From contig JAQXAV010000052.1 of assembly GCA_029252725.1 (NCBI GenBank), forward strand, positions 23,081 through 87,080: a DNA stretch of 64,000 bases, written 5' to 3'. A program made the translations under genes and the position numbers. The DNA is from Amylibacter sp. Its GTDB lineage: Bacteria; Pseudomonadota; Alphaproteobacteria; Rhodobacterales; Rhodobacteraceae. Shown here piece by piece: positions 2,338 through 24,229 of the stretch (position 1 is its first letter; each line of letters starts with the position of its first letter). The notes beneath the pieces are model-generated. The model saw only the letters and a program-made list of their open reading frames with translations, had not been told where the DNA came from and searched no databases.

Positions 2338-2451
2338 GATCGTTCCTCAAATATGCAGAGCAAAGTGACGCTAACCTTACGCAGACCTGGTGCAAACGAC
2401 TAGCCCTTTTTCGATTTATAAACTGTGGTTGGTTTGCAATGACACGACCTG

Positions 2452-3156: not shown

Positions 3157-3887
3157 TACGCTTCCCCCAGATAGGATGCACGTACCTCATCGCTGGTTAT
3201 GACGTCTGCGTACGAACCTTGCGAAATCATACTGCCATGGTTGATGGCAATGGCAGTATCCACCAGAGGTTCCAGCGCTTTCAGATCATGGCTAACGATC
3301 AGAAATGTCATCCCATCAGAACGCATCTTTTGCACCAAATCACTGATCATTGCGATTTCGGCTACAGTCAGGCCTGCGAAGACCTCATCAAGCAACAGCA
3401 CTTTCGGGTCTGTCGCCATAGTCCGCGCCATTTCTAGTTTGCGCAAATCGCCCATCGACAGCTCCGCTGGGGTGCGCTCAAGATCATCTTCGGAGAAGCC
3501 GACGGAAAGCGCTAGTTCTAGCTCGCGATCACGGTTTGGACTATTCAAGATCATACCGAGAACACTGTCAGGCATTAGCCCAACTCGAATATTCTCGGCC
3601 ACTGTCATGTCAGAAAATGGTCGAGGCACTTGATATGTACGACTTACTCCACGGCGAATACGTAAGGGCGTAGACAGATTTGTGATCTCCTCAGTCCCTA
3701 ACTTGATCGAGCCCGACGTTTGGCGATGCTCACCCATAACCTGACTAAAAACAGTTGTCTTTCCCGCTCCGTTTGGCCCAATCAGTCCAACGGATTGCCC
3801 TGCCTCAATCTCGAACGACAAATCATTCGTCGCAGTCAGGCCCCCAAATTTTTTCACCAGATTGGTGACGGTCAACGACATGCTCAT
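3156..3887 (-). CDS. livG: Liv-type ABC transporter ATP-binding subunit
   Basis: KKFGGLTATNDLSF, GPNGAGKTT, LLLDEVFAGL, VSHD. Confidence 0.85.
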   Translation of the reverse strand: MSMSLTVTNLVKKFGGLTATNDLSFEIEAGQSVGLIGPNGAGKTTVFSQVMGEHRQTSGSIKLGTEEITNLSTPLRIRRGVSRTYQVPRPFSDMTVAENIRVGLMPDSVLGMILNSPNRDRELELALSVGFSEDDLERTPAELSMGDLRKLEMARTMATDPKVLLLDEVFAGLTVAEIAMISDLVQKMRSDGMTFLIVSHDLKALEPLVDTAIAINHGSMISQGSYADVITSDEVRASYLGEA

Positions 3888-4825
3888 GACCGCGCCCTTA
3901 CTTTGATCCAGCTTTGATTGATAATCTCATAGATCCCTTTGGGTTGGTACATATACAATAGCAATGCCACCCCACCATAAATAAAATAACGCTCTGCACC
4001 TGGCAGGTAAGGCCGCAGATATTCCAGCAGAAAGGTCAGAAAAAAAGCGCCTATTATGGGCCCAATCGTCGTGGATGCCCCGCCAATCAAAGCGGCTACA
4101 ATAATCGTAAATACAAAGTTGATATCAAACAATGCACGCGGCGCTATGGACCCAAGGTAGTGTACATACATTGCGCCCCCGAGCCCCGCAATCATCGCAC
4201 TTAATAGAAAAGCAAACAGCTTGAGCCGTGTCACAGACAGCCCCGAGCCCTTCACCGCTTCTTCATTCATTCCAATGGCAGACAGCGCAGTGCCGATACG
4301 CGTGCGCATCACAAGCCAGACACTAAAAGCAACAATCACCATCAAAGTCAGCGACATGTAATACCCATTCACTGCCCCACGCGTCAGCGTTGGCAGACCC
4401 GACATCCCACGTGTGCCACCCGTAAGATCGGGCCTTACAACTTGGACGAGTTGATAGATTAATTCCATATATGCCAGCGTAATCAGCGCAAAATAACTGC
4501 CTTTGATGCGCAAAGCCGGTAAAACAACAATCAAACCACCAATCATGGTCACGCCCACCGCAATTGGAATGGAAAGTTCCAAAGGAAAATCGAAGCGCTT
4601 AGTTAATATGGCCGTGGTGTACGCACCAATCCCAATCAAAAATGGATGCCCAAAACTTACGTACCCTGTGCGCCCAGACAGTACATCCCAACTGATCGCA
4701 AACACCGCCAAAAAATTCGCAAAAATGATGATCCGCAGTGTACCTTTGGACACCAGTTCGGGGAGCAGAAACATGAACCCAACGAAGCCAGCCCAAGCCA
4801 CAAAATGATACCAACGCAATCCCAT
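3884..4825 (-). CDS. livM: Liv-type ABC transporter permease (LivM-like)
   Basis: SWDVLSGRTGYVSFGH, LRIKGSYFALITLA, GGTRGMSG motifs. Start moved to MGLRWYH (4825), just after the livH stop. Confidence 0.8.
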   Translation of the reverse strand: MGLRWYHFVAWAGFVGFMFLLPELVSKGTLRIIIFANFLAVFAISWDVLSGRTGYVSFGHPFLIGIGAYTTAILTKRFDFPLELSIPIAVGVTMIGGLIVVLPALRIKGSYFALITLAYMELIYQLVQVVRPDLTGGTRGMSGLPTLTRGAVNGYYMSLTLMVIVAFSVWLVMRTRIGTALSAIGMNEEAVKGSGLSVTRLKLFAFLLSAMIAGLGGAMYVHYLGSIAPRALFDINFVFTIIVAALIGGASTTIGPIIGAFFLTFLLEYLRPYLPGAERYFIYGGVALLLYMYQPKGIYEIINQSWIKVRARS

Positions 4826-4827
4826 GG

Positions 4828-5679
4828 CTAAAGTTCCTCTCGTCCAAAGAGGCCCTTGGGCCGTAAAATTAAAACCGCAATGATCAGCACCATGGTCATC
4901 ACTCCACGAAGCTCGGGCGCGATAAAGGCAGATGTCATTACCTCCATAAACCCAATAATATGTGCTACAATGAGCGTACCAATAATTGACCCGATACCAC
5001 CCACAATCACAACTGCAACAGCTATAATAAGTGGCGCAACCCACATGCCAGGATATAGCTGTGTGTAACTGGCAAAGAACACACCCGAGACCGCGCCAAG
5101 CATCCCTGAAATCCCCCACGTGATCATATTGATGCGATTTGCGTCAATCCCGGAAATAGCTGCACCTTTAGGGTCCATCGACACTGCTTGCATGGCTCGA
5201 CCCGTATGGGTTTTACGTACAAACAGATAGAGAGAAATGAGGATCACCCAACTTGCCACCGCCGCAAACAAATTCGAATATGGGATTGCTGCGCCACCAA
5301 TACGTTCAACTCCCGGAATGATCGGCAGCAAAATTTTGGAACTATCGCCAAATAATAAGACGATACCTGCTTGCAAAACAACGGCAAGGATCAGCGACGA
5401 AATTTCAACCGCCACATGGTCGCCCTTAAGCGGTTTCACAAGCAAACGATATTTTAACAAGCCCATTAGGCAACCAAGGATCGCGGCTAAAAGAACGCCT
5501 GCAATTTTGGGCATTCCAAGTGTTTGCGCAAAATAGAAATATGTGTACCCGCCGATCAGCAAATATGCGCCATAGGCAAGGTTAAGGATACGTCCAACAC
5601 TAAAAATCAGCGTGAACCCCATCGCAATCAATGCGTATAGCCCGCTCAGCAATAGTCCTTGGATCAGGATTTGCGCCAT
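4828..5679 (-). CDS. livH: Liv-type ABC transporter permease (LivH-like)
   Basis: GLLLSGLYALIAMGFTLIFSVGRILNLAYG, TGRAMQAVSMD, VIVGGIGSIIG. Start set at MAQILIQ. Confidence 0.85.
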   Translation of the reverse strand: MAQILIQGLLLSGLYALIAMGFTLIFSVGRILNLAYGAYLLIGGYTYFYFAQTLGMPKIAGVLLAAILGCLMGLLKYRLLVKPLKGDHVAVEISSLILAVVLQAGIVLLFGDSSKILLPIIPGVERIGGAAIPYSNLFAAVASWVILISLYLFVRKTHTGRAMQAVSMDPKGAAISGIDANRINMITWGISGMLGAVSGVFFASYTQLYPGMWVAPLIIAVAVVIVGGIGSIIGTLIVAHIIGFMEVMTSAFIAPELRGVMTMVLIIAVLILRPKGLFGREEL

Positions 5680-5708
5680 AAAATCATGCCTATAAGAGAA
5701 ATCATTGA

Positions 5709-5735
5709 GGACGGCGCGAAGTGTCCGCGCCATCC
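5709..5735 (-). terminator. GC-rich hairpin after the substrate-binding gene (terminator or mRNA stabiliser)
   Basis: Minus strand GGATGGCGCG-GACACTT-CGCGCCGTCC, 10-bp stem with one G.U pair, between SBP and permease genes. Confidence 0.55.
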
Positions 5736-5746
5736 ATCAGGAAGAA

Positions 5747-7036
5747 TTACTTCTTAACCCAGCTAGGGAGGGAAAATGTCGTTGTTGCAAATTCAGGCGG
5801 ATAGACCACCCCAACACTGCCATCTTCTTTCCATTGCACAACAACCATGGACGGCGCCGCATCTTCATAAGGTGCGGTTAAGTCAAACAGAGCATTATGC
5901 GGATAAGTGCGGCCCGTGACCGGTTCAACGGTATCTTTGTCCCAAAAACCGTAGCGTAGGACCAATTTACCATCTTTTTCCAGCGTAAGGTCCTGCTTCT
6001 CCATTGCTTCAGACCATTTTTTTACATCGCCAAAACCACCAGCTTCTTCAGCTGCTGCCATGGCTTGTTTCATGCCATAATAAGCATTGAAACCATTGAA
6101 GTGCGGCATCATTGGCCGCGACTTATATTTAGTTTGGTAGGCCTTAACAAAAGCTTCAGACGTTGGATCCAGCGCGTAACCAACAGACGGAACAGGAGAC
6201 AACGTAGAAATTCCCCCGCCTTGTCCACCGGTATCTTCCCAGTACTCCATCCCAAGCGCTGATACATTCACACCTGTCATTCCCATTGGCACTTGCAGCT
6301 TCACATACTGCGATGAAATCACCTGAGAGTTCACAGAAGACACCTGATAAATGAAGTCTGCACCAGACGCTTCTGCCTTAGAAAACAGCGGTGCAAAGTC
6401 ATTTGTGTTGATGTCATAAGTGATGATTTCTTTCACCTCAATCCCTGCCACAGGGCCAAGCGCCTCTGTTACCAGACCCGTAATTGCACCACCAAAAGCT
6501 GTGTCTTCAGCCAAAATAACAACGCTTTCCCAACCCATTTCTTTCTTGAGAACATCCGCACCAAAATTGATGTAGAGCGTTGCTAAAGCTTCATCTGACG
6601 CGATGTTCATGAAATACGGCGCCATGGTTTCTGGGTCTTCAACCACCATATCAATGATGCCGATGTAAGACGTCCATGTATCAAGTGTCGGAATTTGGAA
6701 TTCCTGCATTCGAGGTAACCAGCCCAAGGATACATCGTCGATGGAACCTGAAATGATAAAATCCACCTCTTCGGTTTCGGCGAGATATTCATAGGCTTTC
6801 ACGCCTTCAGTCACGTCTTCGCCAGTATCAGCACTGACCAAAACAATCTTTTCGCCCATTACACCACCGTTGGCGTTTAACTCTTCAATTGCAATCTCTG
6901 CGCCGCGAAGCGTGGATAAGCCTGTATCAGACGACAAAGATCCAATAAATCCCACTTTGATATCTGCGAAAGTAGCTGAACCAAGTAGCAGCGCACTCAG
7001 TGTTACCGTTGAAAACACAGTTTTCTTTAATTGCAT
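5747..7036 (-). CDS. Liv-type ABC transporter periplasmic substrate-binding protein, ligand unknown
   Basis: Signal peptide (MQLKKTVFSTVTLSALLLGSATFA), IKVGFIGSLS..GAEIAIEELNANGGVMG, first gene of the permease/ATPase operon. Confidence 0.85.
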   Translation of the reverse strand: MQLKKTVFSTVTLSALLLGSATFADIKVGFIGSLSSDTGLSTLRGAEIAIEELNANGGVMGEKIVLVSADTGEDVTEGVKAYEYLAETEEVDFIISGSIDDVSLGWLPRMQEFQIPTLDTWTSYIGIIDMVVEDPETMAPYFMNIASDEALATLYINFGADVLKKEMGWESVVILAEDTAFGGAITGLVTEALGPVAGIEVKEIITYDINTNDFAPLFSKAEASGADFIYQVSSVNSQVISSQYVKLQVPMGMTGVNVSALGMEYWEDTGGQGGGISTLSPVPSVGYALDPTSEAFVKAYQTKYKSRPMMPHFNGFNAYYGMKQAMAAAEEAGGFGDVKKWSEAMEKQDLTLEKDGKLVLRYGFWDKDTVEPVTGRTYPHNALFDLTAPYEDAAPSMVVVQWKEDGSVGVVYPPEFATTTFSLPSWVKK

Positions 7037-7082
7037 AAAAATCTCCCTTGTTCTGATGAGACGGAAAATCTCCCAACTCCGT

Positions 7083-7098
7083 CGTATACAGTATACAG
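7083..7098. promoter_or_regulatory. Putative GntR/FadR-type operator upstream of the ABC transporter operon
   Basis: CGTATACAGTATACAG, tandem GTATAC units also seen at 14097 and 19328. Confidence 0.6.
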
Positions 7099-7363
7099 TG
7101 CACATAGTCAGATTCATTGCAACACTGGATTTTAAGGACTTTCAGCGGCTGAAGTTTCTAACACTCAGTATTTCGACATCTTGTTTTAGCACGCATACAA
7201 CCAATGATTTCTGCGAAAGGCATATTAAAATAAAAATATTTTCCTTCGATGGCAGTTGCAAATTTACACAAGCCATAAGCAAAAAAGTTATTTTCCATCC
7301 GTTTGAATCATTAAAACTTCAACATTAGTAACAAATAGGATACCAAAGAGAACCAATAAAAAT

Positions 7364-7771
7364 TTAATAGTGAATATTGCCTTCTTCGTCGTGTATAATC
7401 GCATCCACATCGATTTCTACCATCATACCAGGCTGAGTTAGTCCTGCCTCAACACCCGTCATCACAGGATCAATGCCCTTAAATACCTCCCCATGGGCTT
7501 TCACCAAACCCCCTGCAGCCGACATATCTGTGATATATGCCCTAGTCCGCACGACGTGGCGCATCTCTGCCCCCACTTCGCGCAATGCTCCTTCAATGCG
7601 GTCAAGGATGTAAACGCTTTGCGCGTAACAGTCGTTAGGTGCATGCAGTTTACCACTCGGCTCAATCGCTGTAGTCCCAGCGATATAAACAAATGGCCCG
7701 ACGCGTTTCGCACGAGAATAGCTACCGATCTCTTCAAATCGTCCACCCGAATTCCACCTACGAAGTGTCAT
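7364..7771 (-). CDS. Rid (YjgF) family protein, last gene of the BMC operon
   Basis: GYS-like GSYSRAKRVGPFVYIAGTTA, VVRTRAYITD, MMVEIDVDA. ATGA overlap with the mdh-like gene. Confidence 0.85.
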   Translation of the reverse strand: MTLRRWNSGGRFEEIGSYSRAKRVGPFVYIAGTTAIEPSGKLHAPNDCYAQSVYILDRIEGALREVGAEMRHVVRTRAYITDMSAAGGLVKAHGEVFKGIDPVMTGVEAGLTQPGMMVEIDVDAIIHDEEGNIHY

Positions 7772-8946
7772 AGGCCAAGCCGCGTGCGAATAGCCTCGGC
7801 CGCGCTGTGCAAAGCGTTGGTTTCATCAGGTGTAAGTCGTATTTCCTCTACGCTTACCAACCCTGTAGCACCCAGATGCGCAGGCACACCTAGCACCACG
7901 CCAGACATACCATATTCACCTTGGAGCATCACTGAAACAGGCACGGGGCCCACCTTTGCGCCGCGAATGTGATCCATTAATTCAACCGAAGAATGCGCGG
8001 GAGCTATCGTGGCTGAACCTGACTTCTTAATCGCAACAACCTGTCCACCCCCCGTGATCGCGTCCTGTACGCAACCCGAAATTTGTTCATCGGATAAAAA
8101 CCGCTCCAACCGCCGTCCTTTAATGCGCGCCAATGACGTAATTGGAGCCATTTCATCCCCGTGACTGCCTAATGTGATCGCAGACACATCATCAGGCGTT
8201 ACACCGGCCGCCATTGCCAACGCATTGCGGAAACGCGAACTGTCAAGCGTCCCTGCCATCCCAAGAACCCGTTCGCGCGGGAACCCTGTAGCCCGAAGCA
8301 TTTCAACCGTCATCTCATCAAGCGGATTGGTAACAACAATCACTATTGCATCGGGCGCAGAAGTTTTAATAGCCTCTCCAGCTGAGTGAATAACCCGTGT
8401 GTTTACATCAATCAGATCAGCCCGCGTCATACCGGGACTTCGGGCACGACCTGCAGTCACGACAACTAGATCAGCCCCTGCAACCAACGTCAAATCTTCG
8501 CCGCCCACACACCGCGCCTTTACACCCGTAATACCACTAGCGTGGTTGAGGTCGAGCGCTAAAGCCTCTGCCATTCCGGGTGCTATATCAATCAGTGAGA
8601 TCTCTTCCGCCATATCCGCAATGGCTGCTAGATGCGCGATATTACCACCAACACCGCCAGCACCAACCAGCGCAATCTTAGAAAACCGCCGAGCGGTACG
8701 TTTGACAATAGCCCTCGGCGCAACCCATTTTGGCGAACGCCGAAAGAGCCCCCGCCGCATTGCTGTTCGACCATCCGTCCTTACCACTGCTGGTTTTTCG
8801 AGCGGCCCTTCGACCAGCTTGATTCCCAATCTCGCAGCTGTTTCACGCGCTAAGTCTGTAACAATATCGCTCGGCAAAACTTCAAAGACAATGCGGCTGT
8901 GTTTTCGCGCATCCTCAATATGTTCTGACCCTACGATGCGTGACAT
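7768..8946 (-). CDS. Malate dehydrogenase (LDH-like MDH) with about 88-aa N-terminal extension
   Basis: KIALVGAGGVG Rossmann motif, TAGRARSPGMTR (Arg at the MDH specificity position), VTNPLD, LDSSRFR, GSHGD catalytic motifs intact. Confidence 0.85.
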   Translation of the reverse strand: MSRIVGSEHIEDARKHSRIVFEVLPSDIVTDLARETAARLGIKLVEGPLEKPAVVRTDGRTAMRRGLFRRSPKWVAPRAIVKRTARRFSKIALVGAGGVGGNIAHLAAIADMAEEISLIDIAPGMAEALALDLNHASGITGVKARCVGGEDLTLVAGADLVVVTAGRARSPGMTRADLIDVNTRVIHSAGEAIKTSAPDAIVIVVTNPLDEMTVEMLRATGFPRERVLGMAGTLDSSRFRNALAMAAGVTPDDVSAITLGSHGDEMAPITSLARIKGRRLERFLSDEQISGCVQDAITGGGQVVAIKKSGSATIAPAHSSVELMDHIRGAKVGPVPVSVMLQGEYGMSGVVLGVPAHLGATGLVSVEEIRLTPDETNALHSAAEAIRTRLGL

Positions 8947-9569
8947 TATTCTGTCCGTCCATCCACTGATTCAATCGCTTTAGTCGCCGCCTGAACAGCA
9001 GTTTGAACAGAGTCTTCCGACCCAGAAATAAATAATCGGCCAAACCGACCAACCGCACGAACTTCGACCATATCGATTTCGGCAGACTTCTCAGCCTCAT
9101 TTGCCGCAATTGAAATATAAGCCGCGGGAGCACATTCGATAATCCCCAGGGTTTGTCCTGGAACCAAAAGCGAACCCTTGCGCCACTTGTTCAATAGCTG
9201 CGCCTGATACGGCTCTACGCTTGTGATAATTTGCGTGTTTGTGATTGCTGGCTTCAACCGATCCGCCATTGTTGCACCCAGTTCTGAGAGCATTGCATCC
9301 CGAGCTGCAGTCACCTCAGCGTTACTCGGCGAGCGCAGAATAAAAAAGCCAAACTCCCGCTCCACCATTTGTGTCGTCGCCTCGACCGAGGAAGCCTTCA
9401 AAGCACGGTCGATCAGCGAAAAAACTCCGTTGCCTGGCGCAAATTCACCAATTAGCACAGTATCACCCGACAAAGGCACGGAACCCTGAACAGTAGCACC
9501 GTTATATGCGGCGAATTTTGGCTGTAAATTGTCGATCTGCATTAGCGCGCGAATTGTAATGTCACTCAT
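8946..9569 (-). CDS. BMC shell protein, tandem permuted BMC-T (CcmP/CsoS1D-like, BMC-Tdp type)
   Basis: 207 aa; IDNLQPKFAAY..G, E.APG, ALKASSV, VEREFG in domain 1; G..LGIIECAPAAY...AANEAEKSAEI..VEVRAVGRFGRLFISG in domain 2. Confidence 0.85.
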   Translation of the reverse strand: MSDITIRALMQIDNLQPKFAAYNGATVQGSVPLSGDTVLIGEFAPGNGVFSLIDRALKASSVEATTQMVEREFGFFILRSPSNAEVTAARDAMLSELGATMADRLKPAITNTQIITSVEPYQAQLLNKWRKGSLLVPGQTLGIIECAPAAYISIAANEAEKSAEIDMVEVRAVGRFGRLFISGSEDSVQTAVQAATKAIESVDGRTE

Positions 9570-10945
9570 TCGCCATACTCCTCATAGATATCGCGCCAAG
9601 GGCGGTTTTCATAGGCCACACGCTTGATATTGATCAGGTGCAGTGCTGTAACGTTGTCCGATGTGATACTGCCAGACCATGTGCCAGTGCCAAGCATAAA
9701 GGACGGTTCCAAATCAGTTGAATAACCCATGCCACCCAAAATCGCTGGTGTATTCACAAGGACGCGGCCCGTGGGCACCGCCGCAAACTGAGCCACGATT
9801 TCTGGATCGTTTGAGTGCAAGCAGGCTGAGTGGCCCCAGCCCTCAAACTTTGCAATATTAATCGACATCTCAATGCCATGCTGGCTGTCACGCACCTCAT
9901 AGAAGGCTAAAACAGGATTCAACTTTTCTGCACTAAGCGGACGATGCCAACCAATTTCGGTCTCCTCAGACACCAAACAACGCGTTTTGGGCGGAATCGA
10001 AAACCCAGCAGCGTCCGCTAATGCTTGTGGGCTTTGCCCAACACGCTCTGCATTCATCGCTTGCTTACCCATAAAGATTACTTTGGATAAACGGTCACTT
10101 TCCGCAAGGGTGCAGAAATACGCTCCACGCATCTTCATTTCTTGGCGCAACTCACGCGCAATCTCGGGATCGGCTATTACCGCTTGTTCCGAAACACAGG
10201 CAGTACCGTAGTCAAAACACTTGGAGGTTACGATCATCTCAGCAACTTCGCCGATCTCACCACCCTTCGATTTATGAACATAACAGGGTACGTTGCCTGC
10301 ACCAACAGCCAACGTCGGCTTACCACTTGAATAGGCCGCCTTTACCATCGCAGGGCCACCCGTCGCCATAACAACTGATGTGCGGCGGTGACTCATCAAT
10401 TCGGCCGTGCCTGCAATGGTCACTTGGTCTAAACACTGAATCAAACCCTTCGGCGCACCCATTTGTTCAGCTGCGTCCGCCATCACCTTGATTGTCGCCA
10501 TCCCACACTTAATGCCACGCGGATGTGGCGCACAAACAATTGCATTGCCTGCCTTCACTGCCGACAGTACCTTAAAAATAATCGTCGAAGTCGGGTTCGT
10601 AACTGGTATTAATGCTGCCACAACGCCCATAGGCTCGCCAAACGCCGCAACCTTCGTCGCATCATCACGCCACAACATTCCAAGCGTCGTCACATCACGT
10701 AGAAAATCCGCAACCGAAAGCGCGTTAAACAAATTCTTAAGCCGCTTATCAGGCACGTTCCCGTATCCTGTTTCTTCAACGGCCAGTGCGGCCAGCTCTT
10801 TGGCAACAGGTTCAATTGCCCGTGCCATCGAATCGACAATTGCATCTACATGCGCAGGGTCCGTGCCAAGAAATTTTTGATACGCCGTAAAAGCCGTTTC
10901 CGCGGTTCGCCGTGCAGCTGCAATGGATTTAAGATCATCGTCCAT
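9566..10945 (-). CDS. CoA-acylating aldehyde dehydrogenase (EutE/PduP family)
   Basis: PMGVVAALIPVTNPTST, ATGGPAMVKAAYSSGKP, catalytic SKCFDYGTACVSEQ, EKLNPVL, GHSACLHS, GTGTWSGSITSDN. Confidence 0.9.
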   Translation of the reverse strand: MDDDLKSIAAARRTAETAFTAYQKFLGTDPAHVDAIVDSMARAIEPVAKELAALAVEETGYGNVPDKRLKNLFNALSVADFLRDVTTLGMLWRDDATKVAAFGEPMGVVAALIPVTNPTSTIIFKVLSAVKAGNAIVCAPHPRGIKCGMATIKVMADAAEQMGAPKGLIQCLDQVTIAGTAELMSHRRTSVVMATGGPAMVKAAYSSGKPTLAVGAGNVPCYVHKSKGGEIGEVAEMIVTSKCFDYGTACVSEQAVIADPEIARELRQEMKMRGAYFCTLAESDRLSKVIFMGKQAMNAERVGQSPQALADAAGFSIPPKTRCLVSEETEIGWHRPLSAEKLNPVLAFYEVRDSQHGIEMSINIAKFEGWGHSACLHSNDPEIVAQFAAVPTGRVLVNTPAILGGMGYSTDLEPSFMLGTGTWSGSITSDNVTALHLINIKRVAYENRPWRDIYEEYGE

Positions 10946-10946
10946 A

Positions 10947-12134
10947 TCAACTTCCTCCCTTGGCTATTGCGTCCATGGCGGATCGCGCCGTGTCTATATC
11001 TTTGGCGGTAATCCCAATAGTATCAAGCCGCCGTCCCGCTGCCGCAACATCTGCACCCAAAATGGCACTCGCCAGCGTAATCATCGATTGCGTCACAGGC
11101 AGTTCAATCCCTGCCAGCTTTCCAGCTGACATAAGCGGCACGAGCGAGCCAATAACTCCATCACGCAACAATGCCTTAGCACCATCTTGATCCGGCACAG
11201 GCCTTTTAGCCTCTCCCTTTACAACACCGGCATGGGTTTCAATCAAAGTTTTCACACCCGCCAATCCACGGACACCAAAGGCTTTCGCAACAGACATCCG
11301 TTCTTTTGTCAATTGTTCGATTATATTGCGCTGTTCGATACCAATCAGAGCAGCAAAGTTCTGATTCTCCGCCAAAGGCGCCCCGCCCATGGGCACAGGC
11401 ACTGCGCCTGAACCCAGTGCCGGACCACTCATCAACAACGCGGGAAACTCTACCAGAGCAGATCCATCTGCGAAGCCAGATGTTAGGACACTGTCACAAG
11501 CTTCTAAATTTGGAAGGTATTTGGCCAAACCTTCCAAAACATCATCCCGACCACTTGGTAGAGTTGCGGCAGCTACAGGTCCGCACGGAGATAAGTTTAA
11601 AACCGCACCCTCTGCCTTAACAAAAAACGGCAAACCTTGCGCTTCGACAATCGTTATATCTGCAGTACAGCCACCAATACGTAAAAACCAAGCAGTTTCA
11701 AGTGCGCCCAACGATCGACCAGGGGCCAAAACCAAAACCTGCCCATCAGACAGATGATCAGCCAATACCATCGCGTAGGTGCGTTGCTTGTGTACAGGCC
11801 CCGTCAGGTAAATCACGTCTGCTTCTCTAACGGACGCATCTAGTTCCGCCGTTGTTTGGATGGACGGCGACGTACGATCTACCTGATAAGTGCCAACTGG
11901 CCCAGCGCCGCGCAGAGAGACACCGCTCGACGAGCGCAATGCCTCCAGTTCGGACCCATAGGCTGAAAAGAGTGAGACTTTCGCCCCTTCAGCCAGGCTC
12001 AGCGCCGCAATAAGCCTCGCATCTTCACCGCCACCCAGCACTGAGATACGGTCATAGGACGGCACGTTTCTTGACTTTTTGGACGCAGACGAGCTTGAAG
12101 CCGCATCCGCGAATTCTGCAAACGCATTGGTCAT
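10947..12134 (-). CDS. NAD/NADP octopine/nopaline (opine) dehydrogenase family homologue with degenerate motifs
   Basis: Family-like layout (ISVLGGG, A.V..ADVIYLTGP, GQVLVLAPG, GSLVPLMSAGKLAGIELPVTQSMITLASAILG.D....GRRLDTIG), but GGGEDA replaces GxGxxG and the expected NxxxHP and RYxxED motifs are missing. Confidence 0.75.
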   Translation of the reverse strand: MTNAFAEFADAASSSSASKKSRNVPSYDRISVLGGGEDARLIAALSLAEGAKVSLFSAYGSELEALRSSSGVSLRGAGPVGTYQVDRTSPSIQTTAELDASVREADVIYLTGPVHKQRTYAMVLADHLSDGQVLVLAPGRSLGALETAWFLRIGGCTADITIVEAQGLPFFVKAEGAVLNLSPCGPVAAATLPSGRDDVLEGLAKYLPNLEACDSVLTSGFADGSALVEFPALLMSGPALGSGAVPVPMGGAPLAENQNFAALIGIEQRNIIEQLTKERMSVAKAFGVRGLAGVKTLIETHAGVVKGEAKRPVPDQDGAKALLRDGVIGSLVPLMSAGKLAGIELPVTQSMITLASAILGADVAAAGRRLDTIGITAKDIDTARSAMDAIAKGGS

Positions 12135-12163
12135 GGAAGTATCCCTTCAGGCGTTAGATTTAA

Positions 12164-12460
12164 CTAACCAGCAATGCCTTCAAGAATGGCTTCCAGTTCA
12201 TCATGTGGGCGTGCGATCACATGGACAGACACCACTTCACCAACCTTGTTAGCTGCTGTCGCACCCGCGTCTGTTGCCGCCTTTACCGCGCCGACTTCGC
12301 CACGAACGAGCGTTGTTACCAACCCACCGCCCGCTTTTGTTTGTGCAACAATCGCAACGCTTGCTGCTTTGACCATCGCATCAGCCGCTTCAATAGAAGC
12401 GACCAAGCCACGTGTTTCGATCATACCTAGAGCCGATTGGCCCGCTGCTGGTTTCGCCAT
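12164..12460 (-). CDS. BMC shell hexamer protein (BMC-H, EutM/PduA-like)
   Basis: [60 protein letters not shown]. Confidence 0.95.
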
Positions 12461-12484
12461 TGTTTTTCTCCTAAATGACAGTGA

Positions 12485-12754
12485 TTATTTTGCGAGGGCG
12501 ACTTTATCCACCACCGCGACAATTGTTGCATCTACGGGCGAACCCGCGCTTCCAGCCGCCATACGAGCCGCTGATCCTGTAGTAATAAGCACGGTGTCTC
12601 CAACGCCTGCACCCACCGTATCCGTGGCTACTTGTGCCTCTGATAAAACGCCACCAACGCCATCGGTGATGTCACACAGAAGCAAGGTCGCCCCAACTAG
12701 CTGTGTATCTTTGGCGGTGGCCGTGACCGTCCCAACAACGCGAGCTAGTTTCAT
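12485..12754 (-). CDS. BMC shell pentamer/vertex protein (BMC-P, EutN/CcmL family)
   Basis: MKLARVVGTVTATAKDTQLVG, VATDTVGAGVGDTVLITTGSAAR, PVDATIVAVVD. Confidence 0.95.
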   Translation of the reverse strand: MKLARVVGTVTATAKDTQLVGATLLLCDITDGVGGVLSEAQVATDTVGAGVGDTVLITTGSAARMAAGSAGSPVDATIVAVVDKVALAK

Positions 12755-14061
12755 CAGAAGTTCCCCAGATAACGGTCAAGTTCGATCTGTGTAACTTGGT
12801 TGTTGATAAACTCATTATAAAAATTCAATTCCCGCTCGCACATTTGCAAATAGATTTCCCACTGTGTTTCTCCCATAACGTCCTTGAGCCACGCAGACCC
12901 GCGGGCAAGATCAATTGCAGTGCCTAAATCCGTTGGGATCGGAGCTGCACGTTGAGATTCATAAGCATTGCCCAGCTCACATTCATCGGGCTCTATACTC
13001 TGCTCAATACCATCCAAACCCGCTGCAATATCAGCAGCCAGTAACAAATATGGATTAGCATCTGCACCCGCGTCACGCTTTTCGATCCGTGTGGCTGTGT
13101 TAGACCCTTGAATCACGCGCAAACCGACAGTGCGGTTGTCCAATCCCCAAGCTGTGTTGATCGGACAAAACGTGTAAGGCTGACGGCGACGGTACCCGTT
13201 CACTGTAGCAGAACCACAAACAGACGCTTCCGCCATCCGCTTTTGCAAACCACCCAAAAAATGTCGGCCCATCTCACTCAACTCACCCTTATTTGCGAAG
13301 ACGTTCTTACCGTTTTCCCAAACTGAATAATGCGTATGGAACCCATTGCCACTCTCCTCAAAGAATGGCTTTGCCATAAAGGTCGCCTTGTAATCGTGCG
13401 CAGATGCCAGCTGCTTTACCAAAGTGCGGAATTCAACCGCACGATCTGCAGACAACATTGCTTCGCCGTAACGTATATTCACCTCAACCTGGCCGGCCGC
13501 ATACTCCGGATTAGACTGCTCGATTGGGATACCGTACTCATTAATTTGTTGGCGGATCGGACCAAGCACATGCTCTAACTCCGCTGAACGATCAAGACCA
13601 TAAACACCGATCCCCCGGTCTTTTGGCAAATTTGTTTCGGGGTCAAGCAGATAGAATTCGAGTTCCGTACCAACTTGTACCTGAAAGCCCATCTTTTCCG
13701 CACGCGTCAACTGTCGTTTCAAAACGTTGCGCGGATCAATCGGTAATTCGCTGTGATCCATTGCTTCAGAACGCCCCATGCACATCGCCACACCCGGCTC
13801 CCAAGGCAACTCTACAGGTTGTGTCATCGGAAACATGTGAAAATCAGGGTAGCCATTGTCAAAGTTCACATAGGGTGTGTCCCAGACATCGCATGTCATA
13901 TCGATCGCGAACAAAGCGATAGAATAAGCATTTCCGTTCTTACAAATATTGTCCCAATGAGTTGCAGGGATGCGCTTTCCACGCATTATTCCACACATAT
14001 CTCCTAAACCCATTACAACAGTATGCGTTCCCTCTGGTAATTTAAAGCTTTGATTAGACAC
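12754..14061 (-). CDS. Glutamine synthetase family gamma-glutamylamide ligase (PuuA/PauA-like), first gene of the BMC operon
   Basis: D..GIMRGKRIP, ELEFYLL, EYAAGQVEVNI, SGNGFHTHYSVW, WGLDNRTVGLR, RIEKRDAGADANPY. The GS glutamate-flap 'EAP' is replaced by 'FCP'. GTG start with GGGAG upstream; TGATG overlap with the BMC-P gene. Confidence 0.85.
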   Translation of the reverse strand: MSNQSFKLPEGTHTVVMGLGDMCGIMRGKRIPATHWDNICKNGNAYSIALFAIDMTCDVWDTPYVNFDNGYPDFHMFPMTQPVELPWEPGVAMCMGRSEAMDHSELPIDPRNVLKRQLTRAEKMGFQVQVGTELEFYLLDPETNLPKDRGIGVYGLDRSAELEHVLGPIRQQINEYGIPIEQSNPEYAAGQVEVNIRYGEAMLSADRAVEFRTLVKQLASAHDYKATFMAKPFFEESGNGFHTHYSVWENGKNVFANKGELSEMGRHFLGGLQKRMAEASVCGSATVNGYRRRQPYTFCPINTAWGLDNRTVGLRVIQGSNTATRIEKRDAGADANPYLLLAADIAAGLDGIEQSIEPDECELGNAYESQRAAPIPTDLGTAIDLARGSAWLKDVMGETQWEIYLQMCERELNFYNEFINNQVTQIELDRYLGNF

Positions 14062-14096
14062 ATTTTTCTCCCTGTCCTACAGTCCTTGCTATCAAA

Positions 14097-14118
14097 CTGT
14101 ATTCTGTATACAGTATCC
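14097..14118. promoter_or_regulatory. Putative GntR/FadR-type operator in the divergent promoter of the BMC operon and the flavoprotein gene
   Basis: CTGTATTCTGTATACAGTATCC, containing the perfect palindrome CTGTATACAG within three 7-bp-period units. Confidence 0.65.
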
Positions 14119-14147
14119 ATAAATACAGTTTCCGCAAGGATTTTCTG

Positions 14148-15290
14148 ATGTCGAAAGCTAACATTATAATAGTCGGTGGGGGAATAGCTGGCGCCATGAC
14201 CGCGCTAAACCTCCAACGCAATGGCGAGCGTGTGACTCTCATCGATCGATGGGAGCCCGGTCATCCCCGTGCTGCCTCGACCGACTATAACCGCGTTATC
14301 CGCGCCATCTCCGGTCGTGATGAATTCTACACTAGATGGGCACGCGAAAGCCGCACGCGCTGGCTGGAACTTCAAACTGAGACTGGCCAGAAACTAATGT
14401 ATGAATGTGGCGCTCTTATCCTCGCCACTAGGGGCCACTGTGACTGGGAAGACGCCACCGCTACCACCTTCGACCGTGTTGGTGTCCCCTACTACAAACT
14501 CAGCAAAGAGGAAGTGCAACAACGTTTTCCACAATTCAAAGTGGACGAAATCGAATACGCCTTGTTTGAACCTGAAGCCGGCCTCCTCATGGCGCACCGC
14601 TGTGTAATCACCGCCATTGACCTATTCAAGAAACTTGGCGGCACGGTCAAACGCGAAATCGTCACAACAGACGCAACCGAACGCCCAATGGTTAACGGAA
14701 AGCCGCTAGAGGCAGACGTGATAATCGTTGCTACAGGCGCTTGGATGGCAGAAATGTTTCCAAAAACAATCAAACCAATCAGTGCAATAATGGGAATAAA
14801 CGTGCTTTACACTTCTACCCCTGACGGATCCGATGCGTTCGACATGGATAACATGCCTTGCTGGATCGATCATGGCCAAGGTTCATTCGGCATCCCAAGT
14901 TCGGAGGGATCAGGCGTCAAAGCCGCCGTTGTTATTCCAAACACACCTATCGATATTAACAACGACGAACGTTTGATCGAAAAACAATCGCTCAACAAAA
15001 CCCGCCAATATATACGTCACCGACTCCCGGGCCTTGAAGGACAACGCATTGTGGACAGTAAATTTAATCAAGTCATCTTAACGCCCGACACACATTTTAT
15101 CGTCGACTGGCATCCCAAACATAAAAACGTCCTGCTCGCTGGCGGTTGTTCGGGACACCTGTTCAAACACGGCCCAATCTTTGGCGAATTTACTGCTGGG
15201 GTTGCCATGAAAAACTATGGCACAGCCGACCGTTTCAAAATCGCGGGCCGCCGCAAACTCTCTCCTAAGGAGAGCCCAAGTGGACGTTAA
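14148..15290 (+). CDS. FAD-dependent amine oxidase, monomeric sarcosine oxidase / N-methyl-amino-acid oxidase family
   Basis: IIIVGGGIAG FAD motif, AASTDYNRVIR, TPDTHFIVDWHP, GCSGHLFK. Confidence 0.8.
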   Translation: MSKANIIIVGGGIAGAMTALNLQRNGERVTLIDRWEPGHPRAASTDYNRVIRAISGRDEFYTRWARESRTRWLELQTETGQKLMYECGALILATRGHCDWEDATATTFDRVGVPYYKLSKEEVQQRFPQFKVDEIEYALFEPEAGLLMAHRCVITAIDLFKKLGGTVKREIVTTDATERPMVNGKPLEADVIIVATGAWMAEMFPKTIKPISAIMGINVLYTSTPDGSDAFDMDNMPCWIDHGQGSFGIPSSEGSGVKAAVVIPNTPIDINNDERLIEKQSLNKTRQYIRHRLPGLEGQRIVDSKFNQVILTPDTHFIVDWHPKHKNVLLAGGCSGHLFKHGPIFGEFTAGVAMKNYGTADRFKIAGRRKLSPKESPSGR

Positions 15291-15563
15291 GACTTAGTGC
15301 TGGCAACCAATAAAAACCTCAGCCTTCGGACAGATAAAGATAAACAAACCTCTGAACATAATTGCTTGAGGCCACCCATGCCATTGCCAAAAAGTAAATA
15401 TCTCTGCTTCAGCCCCACTCAAAGACCGCTTCAATTTGGAGAATAACAGCTAGCTTTCGATCGGTTTAGGCACTTTTGCTTAGGTCTGACAAACGAGCTT
15501 AGGGATGCGTCAGGCTAGGATGTGACATCTTTTTGAATACCGACGACACGGATCAAAATAAAA

Positions 15564-16271
15564 TTATAGATTAGCCGCGTGCACGCGAAAGAATTTGGCT
15601 ACTTTTTCAGTCATTAAATCAGCTTTCACGTCTCCTGCGTCAAAGCTGGCCAGGGCGGCTGCCATTTCCGCATCGTTCGGAAAACCTGACTGGCCTTGCG
15701 CACGCGCAAACACATCCGAAATGTGCTTCTTCGTATGTTCGGGATGAAATTGGACACTGGCAGCTGGAAAGTCATATTCTAACGCACCCACTGGACAGTA
15801 ATCCGCTATCCCCGTGACCTTAGCATTTGGGGGCACTTGGGTGACCTGATCCTGGTGCCACACATGCGCGTCCACCTCAATACCATTGAGATCAAATTGA
15901 CGCACGCCAACAACGTTGCCACCCAAAGTCTTTTCAGCCTTACCTCCAAACGTATCTGCCATGATCTGATGCCCAAAACAAATTCCGAAGATCGGCTTAC
16001 CCACCACTTTGGTGTTCCGTAACAATTGGCGCAGCGGCTCCATCCACGGCGTATCATCGTAAACACCAAACTCTGACCCAGTCAGCAACAGTCCATCAAA
16101 CGTATCCAGTCGCGGCATGGGCGCGCCACCCTCCGCCACATCAATCCGCGCAAATTCCGCATCAGACATCGCAGGTGCGATCCACTCGACAGTTTGCTCC
16201 CCAACGCTGGGTAATCCCTCCAACATTGGAACTGGATGTCGTGTCAGATCGAGAACGGCAATTCTCACCAC
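15564..16271 (-). CDS. Class I glutamine amidotransferase (possible gamma-glutamyl hydrolase)
   Basis: LTGS, nucleophile elbow GICFGHQ, WHQDQV, QFHPE catalytic His-Glu. Confidence 0.85.
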   Translation of the reverse strand: MVRIAVLDLTRHPVPMLEGLPSVGEQTVEWIAPAMSDAEFARIDVAEGGAPMPRLDTFDGLLLTGSEFGVYDDTPWMEPLRQLLRNTKVVGKPIFGICFGHQIMADTFGGKAEKTLGGNVVGVRQFDLNGIEVDAHVWHQDQVTQVPPNAKVTGIADYCPVGALEYDFPAASVQFHPEHTKKHISDVFARAQGQSGFPNDAEMAAALASFDAGDVKADLMTEKVAKFFRVHAANL

Positions 16272-17689
16272 TCATAGGCCCTATCAATTCCAGCCATCTT
16301 CACCCCCGTAAAAGCAGAAGCTTCAAAAGACAATGCACGCAGATCTTCAACCTCTAAGTTATGTACCGATGATTTACCACATGCCTTAGCCAATGCCGTG
16401 ATTTCCATCGTCATCGCTGTCAGATACCGCGCCACACGTTCGGCACCCGCGTGGGGGTCCATGCGCTTCTCCAACTCTGGATCTTGCGTTGCCACGCCAA
16501 CTGGACACATCCCTGTATGACAGTGGTGACAAGCCCCTGGAGATGTGCCAAGCTTCGCGTAATCTTCTAAATAACGGGGCGAATTACAGCCCATTGCGAT
16601 CATCGCCGCATTTCCAATCATTACCGCATCTGCGCCCAAGGCGATCGCCTTGGCCGCATCGACACCTGATCGAATACCGCCCGCCGCAACAAGCGACACC
16701 TTATCCGACATCCCACATTCATCCAGACTTTCTCGCGCTGCACGAATGGCCGACATATTCGGAATACCTGTATGGTTAAGCAGAAGTTCAGGCGACGCAC
16801 CAGTGCCGCCTTCCGCCCCATCTACCACGATAATATCAGCACCAGCCTTTGCCGCAACCGCCACATCGAACCGTGGACGCGTTGCACCCATCTTTATGGA
16901 AATTGGCACCTTATAGTTGGTCGCAATCCGCAGCTCTTCAATTTTTACAGCCAGATCATCGGCACCAAGGAAGTCTGGGTGTCGAATTGTCGACCGCTGA
17001 TCCACGCCTTCAGGCAAAGTGCGCATCTTTGATACGCGCGGGGACACTTTCATCCCAAGCAGCAAGCCACCCGTTCCAGGCTTTGCGCCCTGCCCTACAA
17101 CAATCTCGAGCCCATCCGCGCGACGCAGATGTTCCAGATCAATTCCATATCGGGCGGGTGACATTTGATAAACAAGCCTCTGCGAAGCCTCCCGCTCCTC
17201 TTCGAGCATCCCACCTTCACCCGTGCAGGTCATTGTTCCAACTTTGGATGCACCGTAACCTAACGAAGCTTTTGCAGATGCAGACAATGCACCAAAAGAC
17301 ATCGACGCGATATAGATTGGAATTTTTAGTTCGAGCGGATTTTCAACAATCCCACGTCCACCACCTAAAATGGTTGTTGTATCACACTTCTCGCGGTAGC
17401 CTTCTAACGGTAACCGCGTCATCGTTGCGGGCACAAACGTCAGGTCATCGAAAGTTGGCATCCGTTTATTAAAGGAATTATAGCCACGCACCTGATAACG
17501 CCCCAGCTGAGCTAATGCATGCACTTCCGAAATCGCTTCGGGTGTCCAGCGAGCTGAACCACCTTCGTCATAAGATGCGGGAACACCTGCTGGACGACCT
17601 TCTACAGCACCCGCATCTTTAAATCGAATTTCATCCTCGGGCGGCAGCTCGAATGGATAATCATATGGTTTGCTTAGATCATGAGCCAT
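16265..17689 (-). CDS. FMN-binding glutamate synthase domain protein (N-methylglutamate synthase subunit C, MgsC/GlxD-like)
   Basis: MSFGALS, TGEGG, GQGAKPGTGG, DGAEGGTGA, GGIRSG.D, Fe-S motif CHHCHTGMCPVGVATQD. Confidence 0.85.
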   Translation of the reverse strand: MAHDLSKPYDYPFELPPEDEIRFKDAGAVEGRPAGVPASYDEGGSARWTPEAISEVHALAQLGRYQVRGYNSFNKRMPTFDDLTFVPATMTRLPLEGYREKCDTTTILGGGRGIVENPLELKIPIYIASMSFGALSASAKASLGYGASKVGTMTCTGEGGMLEEEREASQRLVYQMSPARYGIDLEHLRRADGLEIVVGQGAKPGTGGLLLGMKVSPRVSKMRTLPEGVDQRSTIRHPDFLGADDLAVKIEELRIATNYKVPISIKMGATRPRFDVAVAAKAGADIIVVDGAEGGTGASPELLLNHTGIPNMSAIRAARESLDECGMSDKVSLVAAGGIRSGVDAAKAIALGADAVMIGNAAMIAMGCNSPRYLEDYAKLGTSPGACHHCHTGMCPVGVATQDPELEKRMDPHAGAERVARYLTAMTMEITALAKACGKSSVHNLEVEDLRALSFEASAFTGVKMAGIDRAYEW

Positions 17690-18366
17690 GCGCTTGCGTC
17701 CCTGCTTTCAAAATACCATAGGCGCTGGCCGGATACCAGTTTACGCCATTCCCGTGATGTGTCCACCAAGCCCAAAGGATCCAAAATAGTGTCCACTTCT
17801 GCAACTTCTTCAGCTGTAGGCTCAACTGCATGGGCATCCACGCCCAAACTTTCAATTTCGCCCGCAACCCAAATCTCACCTTCCCACAAGGCATCAGCGC
17901 AGCTTTCACCCGCACCACCCAGCGCAATGATCTTACCGCTATGGGACATAAATCCAGACTGGTACCCAATCTTGCCTTCAACCACAATATTGCCGCCCTT
18001 CATGGCGACCCCAACGCGCGGTCCTGCATCACCTTTGACGTGAATCGTCCCGCCCATCATGGCCGCACCACAGGACATGCCTGCGTAGCCACCCACGGTG
18101 ATGTGCCCTTTGGACATTCCCTCACCACAGGCCCAGCCAGCATTGCGTTCTATATCGATGGTCGCACCCACATTGAGCCCTCCACAGTAATATCCTGTGG
18201 AGCCTTCAAAACTAATTTTACATCCATCGGGCAATCCAATGCCAAGGTTGTGACGTGACAATGTATTGACCACACGGACTACCTTATCTGAGGCCGCAGC
18301 ATCCTGGATTTCCTCATTAATTTCTTTTATGTGACGCTTACCAACCTCGATGATATGTTCGCTCAT
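17674..18366 (-). CDS. Glutamate synthase GXGXG domain protein (MgsB/GlxC-like)
   Basis: GSTGYYCGG, GWACGEGMSKG, repeated G-x-A-G beta-helix units; sits between the GATase II and FMN-domain genes. Confidence 0.85.
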   Translation of the reverse strand: MSEHIIEVGKRHIKEINEEIQDAAASDKVVRVVNTLSRHNLGIGLPDGCKISFEGSTGYYCGGLNVGATIDIERNAGWACGEGMSKGHITVGGYAGMSCGAAMMGGTIHVKGDAGPRVGVAMKGGNIVVEGKIGYQSGFMSHSGKIIALGGAGESCADALWEGEIWVAGEIESLGVDAHAVEPTAEEVAEVDTILDPLGLVDTSREWRKLVSGQRLWYFESRDASAWLMI

Positions 18367-19307: not shown

Positions 19308-19327
19308 AAACAGACCCTCCACTTTCA

Positions 19328-19344
19328 TTGTATACTGTATACAG
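19328..19344. promoter_or_regulatory. Putative GntR/FadR-type operator between mgsA-like and gntR genes
   Basis: TTGTATACTGTATACAG; a further CTGTATACG copy lies at 19418-19426. Confidence 0.65.
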
Positions 19345-19451
19345 CCCAATAAAACAGGCAAGGAGAAAATGAGCGCTTGTGACACAGGGGTTTCGCTTGC
19401 CAGTGTATTTGTGGATTCTGTATACGGTTAAAAGGAAATAAAGGACCAAGC

Positions 19452-24219: not shown

Positions 24220-24229
24220 TACTTCGTCG

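Follow-up and report, generated by a model that had tools for sequence, protein, structure and literature searches.

The eight-gene operon, its host and its relatives

The stretch of DNA analysed here, called the window below, comprises 64,000 nucleotides of an Amylibacter sp. genome (assembly GCA_029252725.1, contig JAQXAV010000052.1, positions 23,081 to 87,080), and it carries an eight-gene operon for a bacterial microcompartment (BMC), all on the minus strand. The first gene encodes a GS-family gamma-glutamyl ligase (12754-14061; PF00120, 302 bits) and is followed by those for a BMC-P pentamer vertex protein (12485-12754; PF03319, 89 bits), a BMC-H hexamer shell protein (12164-12460; PF00936, 88 bits), a protein with the fold of opine dehydrogenases, or ODH-like protein (10947-12134; PF02317, 31 bits, with a full-length match to 1BG6), a CoA-acylating aldehyde dehydrogenase, or AldDH (9566-10945; TIGR02518, 499 bits), a tandem-domain BMC-T protein of the CcmP/CsoS1D-like double-stacking type (8946-9569; NF053796, 204 bits, plus PF00936), a malate dehydrogenase, or MDH (7768-8946; NF004863, 312 bits at a cut-off of 283), and a Rid-family protein (7364-7771; PF01042, 77 bits; TIGR00004, 45 bits at a cut-off of 106). 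Neighbouring genes overlap by 1 nt (at 12754 and 8946) or by 4 nt (9566-9569 and 7768-7771), and between the ODH-like and AldDH genes there is a gap of 1 nt, at 10946. An initial annotation had described these eight genes with their couplings and their families; the list of open reading frames (ORFs) reproduces all of its coordinates, overlaps and the gap, and matches to Pfam and NCBIfam models uphold all eight assignments. For solved homologues the PDB was used, and for folds AlphaFold2 (AF2) models and Foldseek.

The host is an uncultured marine member of the Rhodobacteraceae/Paracoccaceae with a genome of 2.78 Mb, 99.3% complete. Its closest named relatives are metagenome-assembled genomes (MAGs) of Amylibacter and Neptunicoccus, whose ODH-like proteins are 87-88% identical to that of the window, and DNA of the locus occurs in marine and seawater metagenomes, which bears out the marine Roseobacter-group host that had been proposed from the sequence. 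The same annotation had suggested looking for homologous loci in Rhodobacteraceae and marine MAGs, and these were found: a profile search with the ODH-like protein gave at least 147 species-level genomes with a close homologue, and the best 80 loci were compared by tblastn with the proteins of the window, within a flank limit of 10 kb, so that most gene absences among the 80 reflect contig ends or that limit. Their hosts are marine Rhodobacteraceae (of Amylibacter, Ruegeria, Sulfitobacter, Lentibacter, Tropicibacter, Falsiruegeria and Aliishimia), Hyphomicrobiales/Rhizobiales (Ahrensia, Nitratireductor, Microbaculum and Tepidamorphus) and Gammaproteobacteria (Granulosicoccaceae and Halioglobus).

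The two BMC-domain (PF00936) genes of the operon are the only ones in the genome. BMC-H and BMC-T, with a mean identity of 89% across 60 loci, are among the best conserved genes of the surrounding module, and the BMC-T orthologue in a more distant related locus, L081, has the domains CsoS1D_N and BMC. The classical metabolosome core consists of a signature enzyme, an AldDH, an alcohol dehydrogenase and a phosphotransacylase (PTAC); this locus has the AldDH alone. Ethanolamine ammonia-lyase (EutBC), diol dehydratase, glycyl-radical enzyme, aldolase and class-III aminotransferase were all missing from the ORFs of the window that were scanned (nearly all of those of at least 200 aa). The PduL family, PF06130, has no match in the genome, where the Pta-type family, PF01515, was not searched for, and clustering of all ORFs in the related loci gave no further conserved enzyme and no PTAC, once three clusters (14, 21 and 22) that are antisense artefacts of these GC-rich loci had been set aside.

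Membership in the MIC2 type

The BMC catalogue of Sutter, Melnicki, Schulz, Woyke and Kerfeld (2021; Nat Commun 12:3809; PMC8217296, Supplementary Data 2) lists a type MIC2, "metabolosome with incomplete core 2", with 22 loci and no assigned function, from Alpha- and Gammaproteobacteria, Acidithiobacillia and two Actinobacteria. It is described there as having an AldDH that lacks an encapsulation peptide (EP), a pfam02866 lactate/malate dehydrogenase (LDH/MDH) lengthened at its N-terminus by about 70 aa that are seen in BMC loci only, a protein of the 6PGDH-like superfamily whose N-terminal EP is short and helical, and a pfam00120 GS protein (PMC8217296). The operon in the window has every one of these. 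Its shell is the minimal one of MIC2 (a single BMC-H, a single BMC-P and a single double-stacking BMC-T); its pfam00171 acylating AldDH aligns with TIGR02518 over residues 2-454 of 459 and has neither an EP nor a terminal extension; in its MDH the Ldh_1_N domain begins only at residue 90, the housekeeping MDH being unextended; its ODH-like protein combines PF02317 and 1BG6 matches with a helix at residues 3-16 and a linker in the AF2 model; and its first gene is the pfam00120 gene, at 302 bits. As in the catalogued type, no PTAC, satellite locus or second BMC type was found in the genome by the PF06130 and PF00936 searches (PF01515 not having been searched for).

By the catalogue's written description the locus is thus a MIC2-type metabolosome. 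It does not represent an unlisted type but adds a further member to an orphan type that had already been catalogued. The initial annotation had called it an uncharacterised metabolosome type of unknown substrate; this holds in that no known signature enzyme is present and no function has been published, while the implied absence from BMC catalogues does not hold, since the type is already listed. MIC2, having no assigned function, is not a characterised type with a known substrate, the one kind of assignment that would have spoken against the annotation. No paper giving MIC2 a function was found in the literature on MIC2 function, on BMCs in roseobacters and on N-alkylglutamate routes, and a 2024 paper in PNAS, from the same field, counts MIC2 among those types in which the regeneration of NAD+ "has yet to be determined".

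The cargo enzymes

The MDH of the operon is a second copy, 39% identical to a housekeeping MDH encoded elsewhere in the genome. When the two are aligned, the operon's enzyme is seen to keep the Arg of the (A)R(S/K)PGM motif, the second Arg, and the NPLD, LDSxRFR and GxHGD motifs; by these it should be a working oxaloacetate/malate enzyme. Its N-terminal extension, 88 aa in length and conserved across loci, follows the consensus (S/G)R(V/I)(V/I)G.E.IEDAR..GR.VFE.LPGDIVT.LARETA.RLGI.L.DGP. In the AF2 model residues 1-47 form a beta-alpha-beta-alpha-beta mini-domain (pLDDT of at least 90), followed by a basic helix at 59-70. The extension has no Pfam match even at an E-value of 10 and its model no PDB match (best E 0.37); the catalogue's remark that it shows distant EutQ/cupin-like homology could not be reproduced in these Pfam and PDB structure searches. 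We propose that this MDH is a dedicated recycler of NAD+ in the lumen.

Among solved structures the AldDH is closest to 5J78 (433 bits) and 3K9D (384 bits), which are acetylating acetaldehyde dehydrogenases; 5JFL, 5JFN and 6GVS, which we take to be PduP-type aldehyde dehydrogenases, reach only about 150 bits. Mean identity across loci is 81.7%. Sulfoacetaldehyde/taurine was considered as a substrate and judged unlikely: a true SauS is encoded 10 kb away and, as the control, scores 667 bits on the SauS model (cut-off 600), on which the AldDH of the operon scores 307.

In the Rid-family protein, by our own reading of the sequence, the carboxylate-binding Arg of RidA is replaced by Met.

The ODH-fold protein

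The ODH-like protein matches CENDH (1BG6) over its full length (E 3e-16, or 3e-19 with a profile). Its AF2 model (pLDDT 89.7) has the two-domain ODH fold, with a Foldseek match to 1BG6 at E 8e-23 and a TM-score of 0.83. At the N-terminus lies an amphipathic helix, residues 3-16 (hxxhhxxh), then a Ser-rich linker, residues 17-28; in the model these look like an encapsulation peptide. The active site departs from that of canonical opine dehydrogenases. Taking the catalytic residues of CENDH to be His202 and Asp297 and its keto-acid-binding residue to be Arg292, His202 has become Glu229, the Asp is Gly326 and the Arg position is Lys/Ala; the RYxxED motif reads ALLRDG, and the His of xAH is Gln117.

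This protein may be an enzyme that has been remodelled, such as an N-alkylglutamate dehydrogenase that forms aldehyde, or it may serve the tag-less AldDH as an adaptor; to the second possibility we give somewhat less than even odds. A non-catalytic adaptor would use its EP to bring the EP-less AldDH, and perhaps the flavin oxidase described below, into the shell. The replacement of all three CENDH residues fits that role, as does a GxGxxG motif that is broken in 4 of the 17 BMC-type members; so do the N-terminal helix and linker, the single nucleotide between its gene and that of the AldDH, and its absence from every shell-less version of the pathway (see below). It is also the least conserved enzyme-like protein of the module (mean identity 66.6%, against 81.7% for the AldDH; in L081, 41% against 73%). 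However, 16 of the 17 members have an acidic residue, Glu or Asp, at the His position and 15 have a new Arg nearby, a pattern that resembles remodelling and not decay, and two deep-branching MIC2-like loci (P0155 and P0160), with the same GS-P-H-ODH-AldDH synteny, keep the His and acidic pair while lacking the keto-acid Arg, so that the protein probably descends from an enzyme.

A conserved module of about 19 kb

Conservation extends beyond the operon, which forms the core of a module some 19 kb long. Across the 80 loci this spans the importer, Rid, MDH, BMC-T, AldDH, ODH-like, BMC-H, BMC-P and GS-like genes, the oxidase, a trio of synthase-like genes and a GntR-family regulator. The gene set of L081 is the same as that of the window, even though its ODH-like protein is only 40-41% identical, and a deeper-branching locus, L096 (31%), keeps the oxidase next to GS-P-H-ODH.

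Upstream of the ligase gene and divergent from it, on the plus strand, lies the gene for an FAD oxidase like monomeric sarcosine oxidase, MSOX (14148-15290; PF01266, 154 bits). Beyond it, on the minus strand, are an accessory gene for a class-I glutamine-amidotransferase/Peptidase_C26-like protein (15564-16271; Pfam/NCBIfam), kept in 37 of the 80 loci and possibly encoding a gamma-glutamyl-amide hydrolase, and the trio, which resembles N-methylglutamate synthase (16265-19307; Pfam) and whose genes are kept in 46-48 of the 80. The GntR/FCD-family regulator follows on the plus strand (19452-20114; Pfam; 44 of 80).

At the other end of the operon, again on the minus strand, lies a Liv-type ABC importer. 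Its periplasmic substrate-binding protein (SBP), of the Peripla_BP_6 (Liv/Urt/Ami) type, is encoded at 5747-7036 (Pfam, 131 bits) and kept in 59 of 80 loci; the true start is probably the Met at 7036 and not that of the longest ORF at 7117, as judged by the signal-peptide-like MQLKKTVFSTVTLSALLLGSATFA that follows the internal Met. Two permeases, LivM/UrtC-like (3884-5119) and LivH/UrtB-like, occupy 3884-5733; the listed ORFs overlap, and the LivM/UrtC-like one probably starts later than listed. The two ATPases, LivG/UrtD-like (3156-3887) and LivF/UrtE-like (2452-3156), are kept in about 55 of the 80 loci at 60-91% identity; permeases and ATPases were assigned by NCBIfam.

A shared operator

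A palindrome, CTGTATACAG, with flanking half-repeats occurs four times in the module of the window, in all four of its promoter regions. A GntR-type repeat with two copies of GTATAC lies at 7084-7097, about 50 bp upstream of the probable start of the SBP gene at 7036 and thus ahead of the transporter operon; AAACTGTATTCTGTATACAGTATCC lies at 14096-14118, in the 86-bp region between the divergent GS-like and oxidase genes; TGTATACTGTATACA at 19329-19343 precedes by 22 bp the start of the trio's amidotransferase gene at 19307; and a half-site at 19419-19425 falls in the promoter of the GntR gene itself. With the revised starts of the SBP (7036) and of the amidotransferase (19307), both of these operator copies would lie in promoters and not in coding sequence. 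The same element, TG(G/A)ATACTGTATACAGAATACA, lies between the GS-like and oxidase genes in 69 of 78 related loci, whose hosts belong to two classes. The form of the element is that expected for the operator of an FCD-type GntR regulator, and the four transcription units are predicted to belong to one regulon. Scans of positions 1000-20500 for sigma-70 promoters and for terminators gave no more sites than shuffled sequence and are thus uninformative on transcription units.

The trio, the ligase and the oxidase

The trio consists of an Ntn amidotransferase subunit (18363-19307), a GXGXG subunit (17674-18366; Pfam) and a GltB-type FMN subunit (16265-17689; Pfam). The first probably starts at 19307, with MCGIAG and hence Met-Cys, and not at the longest-ORF start of 19385. 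The FMN subunit is 81-98% identical across loci, and the seven genomes without a trio within 10 kb of the BMC locus all encode an FMN subunit elsewhere that is 88-93% identical. In a sample of 201 genera of the family, with one genome for each genus, 8 have the ODH-like gene, and these 8 are all among the 10 that have the high-identity FMN subunit; the trio therefore co-occurs with the BMC in every carrier genus of the sample. A second FMN-subunit paralogue, about 53% identical, is present in the window's genome (contig C77, 1599-2864) and in six of those seven genomes, and presumably belongs, in the methylamine pathway, to the canonical N-methylglutamate synthase. The BMC-linked trio forms an orthologous group separate from this paralogue, of the same architecture and probably with a different substrate.

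The best solved match of the GS-like ligase is 5DM3 (207 bits), which we take to be the Chromohalobacter salexigens ligase of a glutamylation-based ethanolamine pathway; the GmaS structure 7CQL (139 bits) and 9QUR (129 bits) follow, and on TIGR03105 the ligase scores 232 bits at a cut-off of 470.

The oxidase gene is present in 78 of the 80 loci, in L081 and, at 41% identity, in L096. Its product aligns with MSOX (1L9C) at 122 bits and about 30% identity; it lacks the Cys for covalent FAD attachment and has no terminal extension, and it keeps the Arg and Lys aligned with those that in MSOX presumably bind the substrate carboxylate. The alignment and these two residues fit an N-substituted alpha-amino acid as the substrate.

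Versions of the pathway without a shell

Four genomes carry the pathway without shell genes: two are those of the ten high-identity FMN-subunit genomes that have no ODH-like gene, and two are Alphaproteobacteria found in a class-wide search (loci L082 of genome G092, L083 of G128, L092 of G467 and L094/L095 of G208). All four have the GntR regulator, Rid and the trio (79-86% identity), together with an oxidase of the DAO family (about 430 aa) and an aldehyde dehydrogenase of the ordinary, non-acylating kind (about 470 aa). The GS-like ligase was seen in three and a diverged Liv-type ABC system in two, and one version includes two acyl-CoA synthetases, a PRK12583 member (856 bits, above cut-off) and an MbcS/acetate-CoA-ligase-like protein. 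No shell genes, ODH-like gene, MDH or acylating AldDH were found near any of the four. L083 also encodes a DAO+GCV_T protein resembling DMGDH and has a gene like those for choline/ethanolamine kinases, and L095 adjoins HPPD.

The invariant pathway is thus ligase, trio, flavin oxidase, an aldehyde-consuming step and Rid, and this is the most informative result of the analysis. From the gene content of the shell-less versions the product of the pathway would be an aldehyde destined for acyl-CoA, with the MDH and the ODH-fold protein as BMC-specific additions.

Genes flanking the module and elsewhere in the window

A DUF1028 (Ntn-hydrolase-like) gene lies at 1253-1963, downstream of the ABC importer, and is kept there in 1 of the 80 loci. 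On the other side, 20111-27198 holds genes for a LacI-family regulator, a TctA/B/C tripartite tricarboxylate-type (TTT) transporter, a SauS acylating sulfoacetaldehyde dehydrogenase (24236-25738; NF047625, 667.5 bits at a cut-off of 600) and a CoA ligase of the AMP-forming kind (25717-27198); together these resemble a cluster for sulfoacetate utilisation, with a TTT transporter in place of the MFS transporter SauU. The DUF1028, LacI, TctABC and SauS/ligase genes were considered as parts of the module and rejected, for they flank it only in the closest relative. Outside the module and unrelated to it, at 53840-57730, two FAD_binding_4 genes (one with FAD-oxidase_C) and a gene for an Fe-S protein with CCG domains resemble the GlcDEF glycolate oxidase.

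Proposed function

The conserved and co-regulated neighbours of the operon suggest that the organelle detoxifies an aldehyde derived from an imported small amine that is carried on glutamate. At a probability of roughly 55%, we regard the MIC2-type metabolosome as the aldehyde-handling core of a GntR-controlled module for the catabolism of an imported small primary amine. From the gene content we infer the following chemistry and lumenal enzyme set. The amine would be imported by the Liv-type ABC system and converted by the GS-like ligase, with ATP, to a gamma-glutamyl amide, from which the trio, acting like MgsABC, would form an N-substituted glutamate and ammonia. Oxidation of this secondary amine, by the MSOX-like flavoprotein, by the encapsulated ODH-fold protein or by both, would give glutamate and an aldehyde, which inside the H/P/T shell the acylating AldDH would convert to acyl-CoA. 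The extended MDH would then re-oxidise the lumenal NADH with oxaloacetate and the malate would leave the shell, a shuttle in place of the usual alcohol dehydrogenase. This would suit aerobes, as no substrate carbon would be wasted, unlike the alcohol-dehydrogenase solution, in which half of the carbon is lost as alcohol. There being no PTAC, CoA and acyl-CoA must in this scheme exchange across the shell, probably through a gated BMC-T. A short-chain aldehyde is suggested by the affinities of the AldDH and by the acyl-CoA synthetases that one shell-less version carries, which makes a short C2-C4 alkylamine or amino alcohol the likeliest substrate; ethylamine, giving acetaldehyde, is the leading single guess.

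Several observations weigh against the scheme, above all at the site and step of aldehyde formation, for which there are two candidate enzymes. The oxidase has no recognisable encapsulation peptide, which is a difficulty for the generation of aldehyde within the shell, and the ODH-fold protein, without the canonical His, Asp and Arg and with a degenerate GxGxxG in some orthologues, may be non-catalytic. The ligase was rejected as a GmaS orthologue by its 7CQL and TIGR03105 scores, and even its match to 5DM3 reaches only 207 bits. The solved homologues of the SBP are all weak (at most 39 bits), so that no ligand can be inferred from them; the Rid protein lacks the Arg of RidA; no precedent was found for oxaloacetate-dependent NAD+ recycling in a BMC; and seawater metatranscriptomes contain a few short contigs from the module, too few to show expression or induction.

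The best of the competing explanations, though an unlikely one, is a route of the Puu/Pau type, in which a polyamine or an amino alcohol (ethanolamine or 1-amino-2-propanol, for instance) keeps its gamma-glutamyl group. Either the oxidase or the ODH-fold protein would then make a gamma-glutamyl aldehyde for the AldDH in the shell, and the class-I amidotransferase-like hydrolase would free the glutamate. The GS-like ligase, DAO-family oxidase, aldehyde dehydrogenase and class-I amidotransferase/Peptidase_C26 protein do mirror PuuA, PuuB, PuuC and PuuD, and the best solved relative of the ligase, 5DM3, presumably belongs to an ethanolamine pathway. But the hydrolase gene is found in only 37 of the 80 loci, and the MgsABC-like trio, which strictly co-occurs with the BMC, would stand idle; the oxidase resembles MSOX, an enzyme of N-substituted alpha-amino acids, and not PuuB, and a bulky gamma-glutamyl aldehyde is ill-suited to an AldDH closest to acetaldehyde enzymes.

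Slightly less probable again is the import of an amino acid that is itself a secondary amine, whether an opine or an N-alkyl amino acid, of algal or invertebrate origin and cleaved by the MSOX-like oxidase, the ODH-fold protein or both, with the ligase and trio salvaging the amine. Opines are common in marine invertebrates, and a catalogued carrier of MIC2, Ca. Rhodobacter lobularis/oscarellae, is sponge-associated; the SBP is of a Liv-type amino-acid family, and both an opine-dehydrogenase fold and a sarcosine-oxidase-like enzyme are in the module. Against this, the ODH-fold protein lacks the canonical Arg, His and Asp, and the shell-less versions, without any ODH-like gene, keep the trio (and at least three of them the ligase) beside an oxidase and an aldehyde dehydrogenase, which makes ligase and trio central and not a salvage route. 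That the shell genes are a relic or fail to assemble, leaving the enzymes free in the cytosol, is very improbable: the shell is known here from its genes alone and shell-less versions of the pathway do exist, but the H, P and T genes are intact, translationally coupled and, for H and T, conserved at the identity given above, and two cargo proteins keep BMC-specific extensions.

Returning to catabolism of an imported primary amine, one may go further and see MIC2 as an "alkylamine-utilisation microcompartment" that combines entry by way of a glutamate conjugate, NAD+ recycling by malate/oxaloacetate and a remodelled ODH-fold protein serving as aldehyde-releaser or as AldDH adaptor, all three of them unprecedented. 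This fuller version we put forward tentatively, as distinctly short of an even chance. The comparative evidence narrows an orphan type to a specific model, one that can be tested. Several carriers are cultured marine bacteria, among them Lentibacter algarum, Falsiruegeria mediterranea CECT 7615, Ruegeria profundi ZGT108, Sulfitobacter aestuariivivens, Aliishimia ponticola and Microbaculum marinum KCTC 52363. If the model is right, glutamate as an amine carrier is a new entry route into metabolosomes, and the MDH a new means by which cofactors are recycled within protein shells, a point of relevance to BMC engineering; the module would also be a widespread sink for dissolved organic nitrogen, in the form of small amines, in the Roseobacter group, Hyphomicrobiales and Granulosicoccaceae, to judge by the 147 or more species-level genomes. 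If it fails, the locus still counts as an ordinary representative of a type that the catalogue lists.

Comparison with known systems

Metabolosomes of the Eut/Pdu type share with this locus an H/P/T shell around a CoA-acylating AldDH of the EutE lineage, and amphipathic-helix encapsulation peptides on the cargo. They differ in that the locus here is without a lyase, dehydratase or glycyl-radical signature enzyme, an alcohol dehydrogenase or PduL/Pta, that MDH is its sole candidate NADH sink, and that its hosts are aerobic marine heterotrophs.

The N-methylglutamate pathway (GmaS, MgsABC and MgdABCD) likewise has a GS-family ligase and a three-subunit GltB-like synthase, after which a secondary amine is oxidised to an aldehyde. 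Like the trio, that synthase is made up of an Ntn amidotransferase beginning with Met-Cys, together with GXGXG and FMN subunits. MgdABCD is not in the module, however, a monomeric MSOX-like oxidase standing in its place, and the aldehyde would here pass to a shell-enclosed CoA-acylating AldDH instead of to C1 carriers.

A glutamylation-based pathway for ethanolamine has been described (PMC10132767; PMC6529630). In Chromohalobacter salexigens and Phaeobacter sp. MED193 (PMC10132767), as is proposed here, a GS-family amine gamma-glutamylase opens amine catabolism, and marine Roseobacter-group bacteria are involved. The ethanolamine route, however, relies on an importer of the TRAP type, on two dehydrogenases of the ordinary kind and on an amidohydrolase, and it is without a GltB-like trio, an oxidase or a shell.

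The ODH-fold protein shares its whole fold with CENDH (1BG6) and octopine dehydrogenase (3C7A), to which it adds the EP at its N-terminus and, within the chain, a loop of about 20 aa (236-259).

With MIC2 itself (PMC8217296) the core agrees feature for feature, without any core difference, and the host is likewise a proteobacterium. The text of the catalogue makes no mention of the oxidase, the MgsABC-like trio, the importer, the regulator with its operator or the shell-less versions, all of which belong to the system as described here, and where it lists 22 loci, at least 147 species-level genomes are now seen to carry a close homologue of the ODH-like protein.

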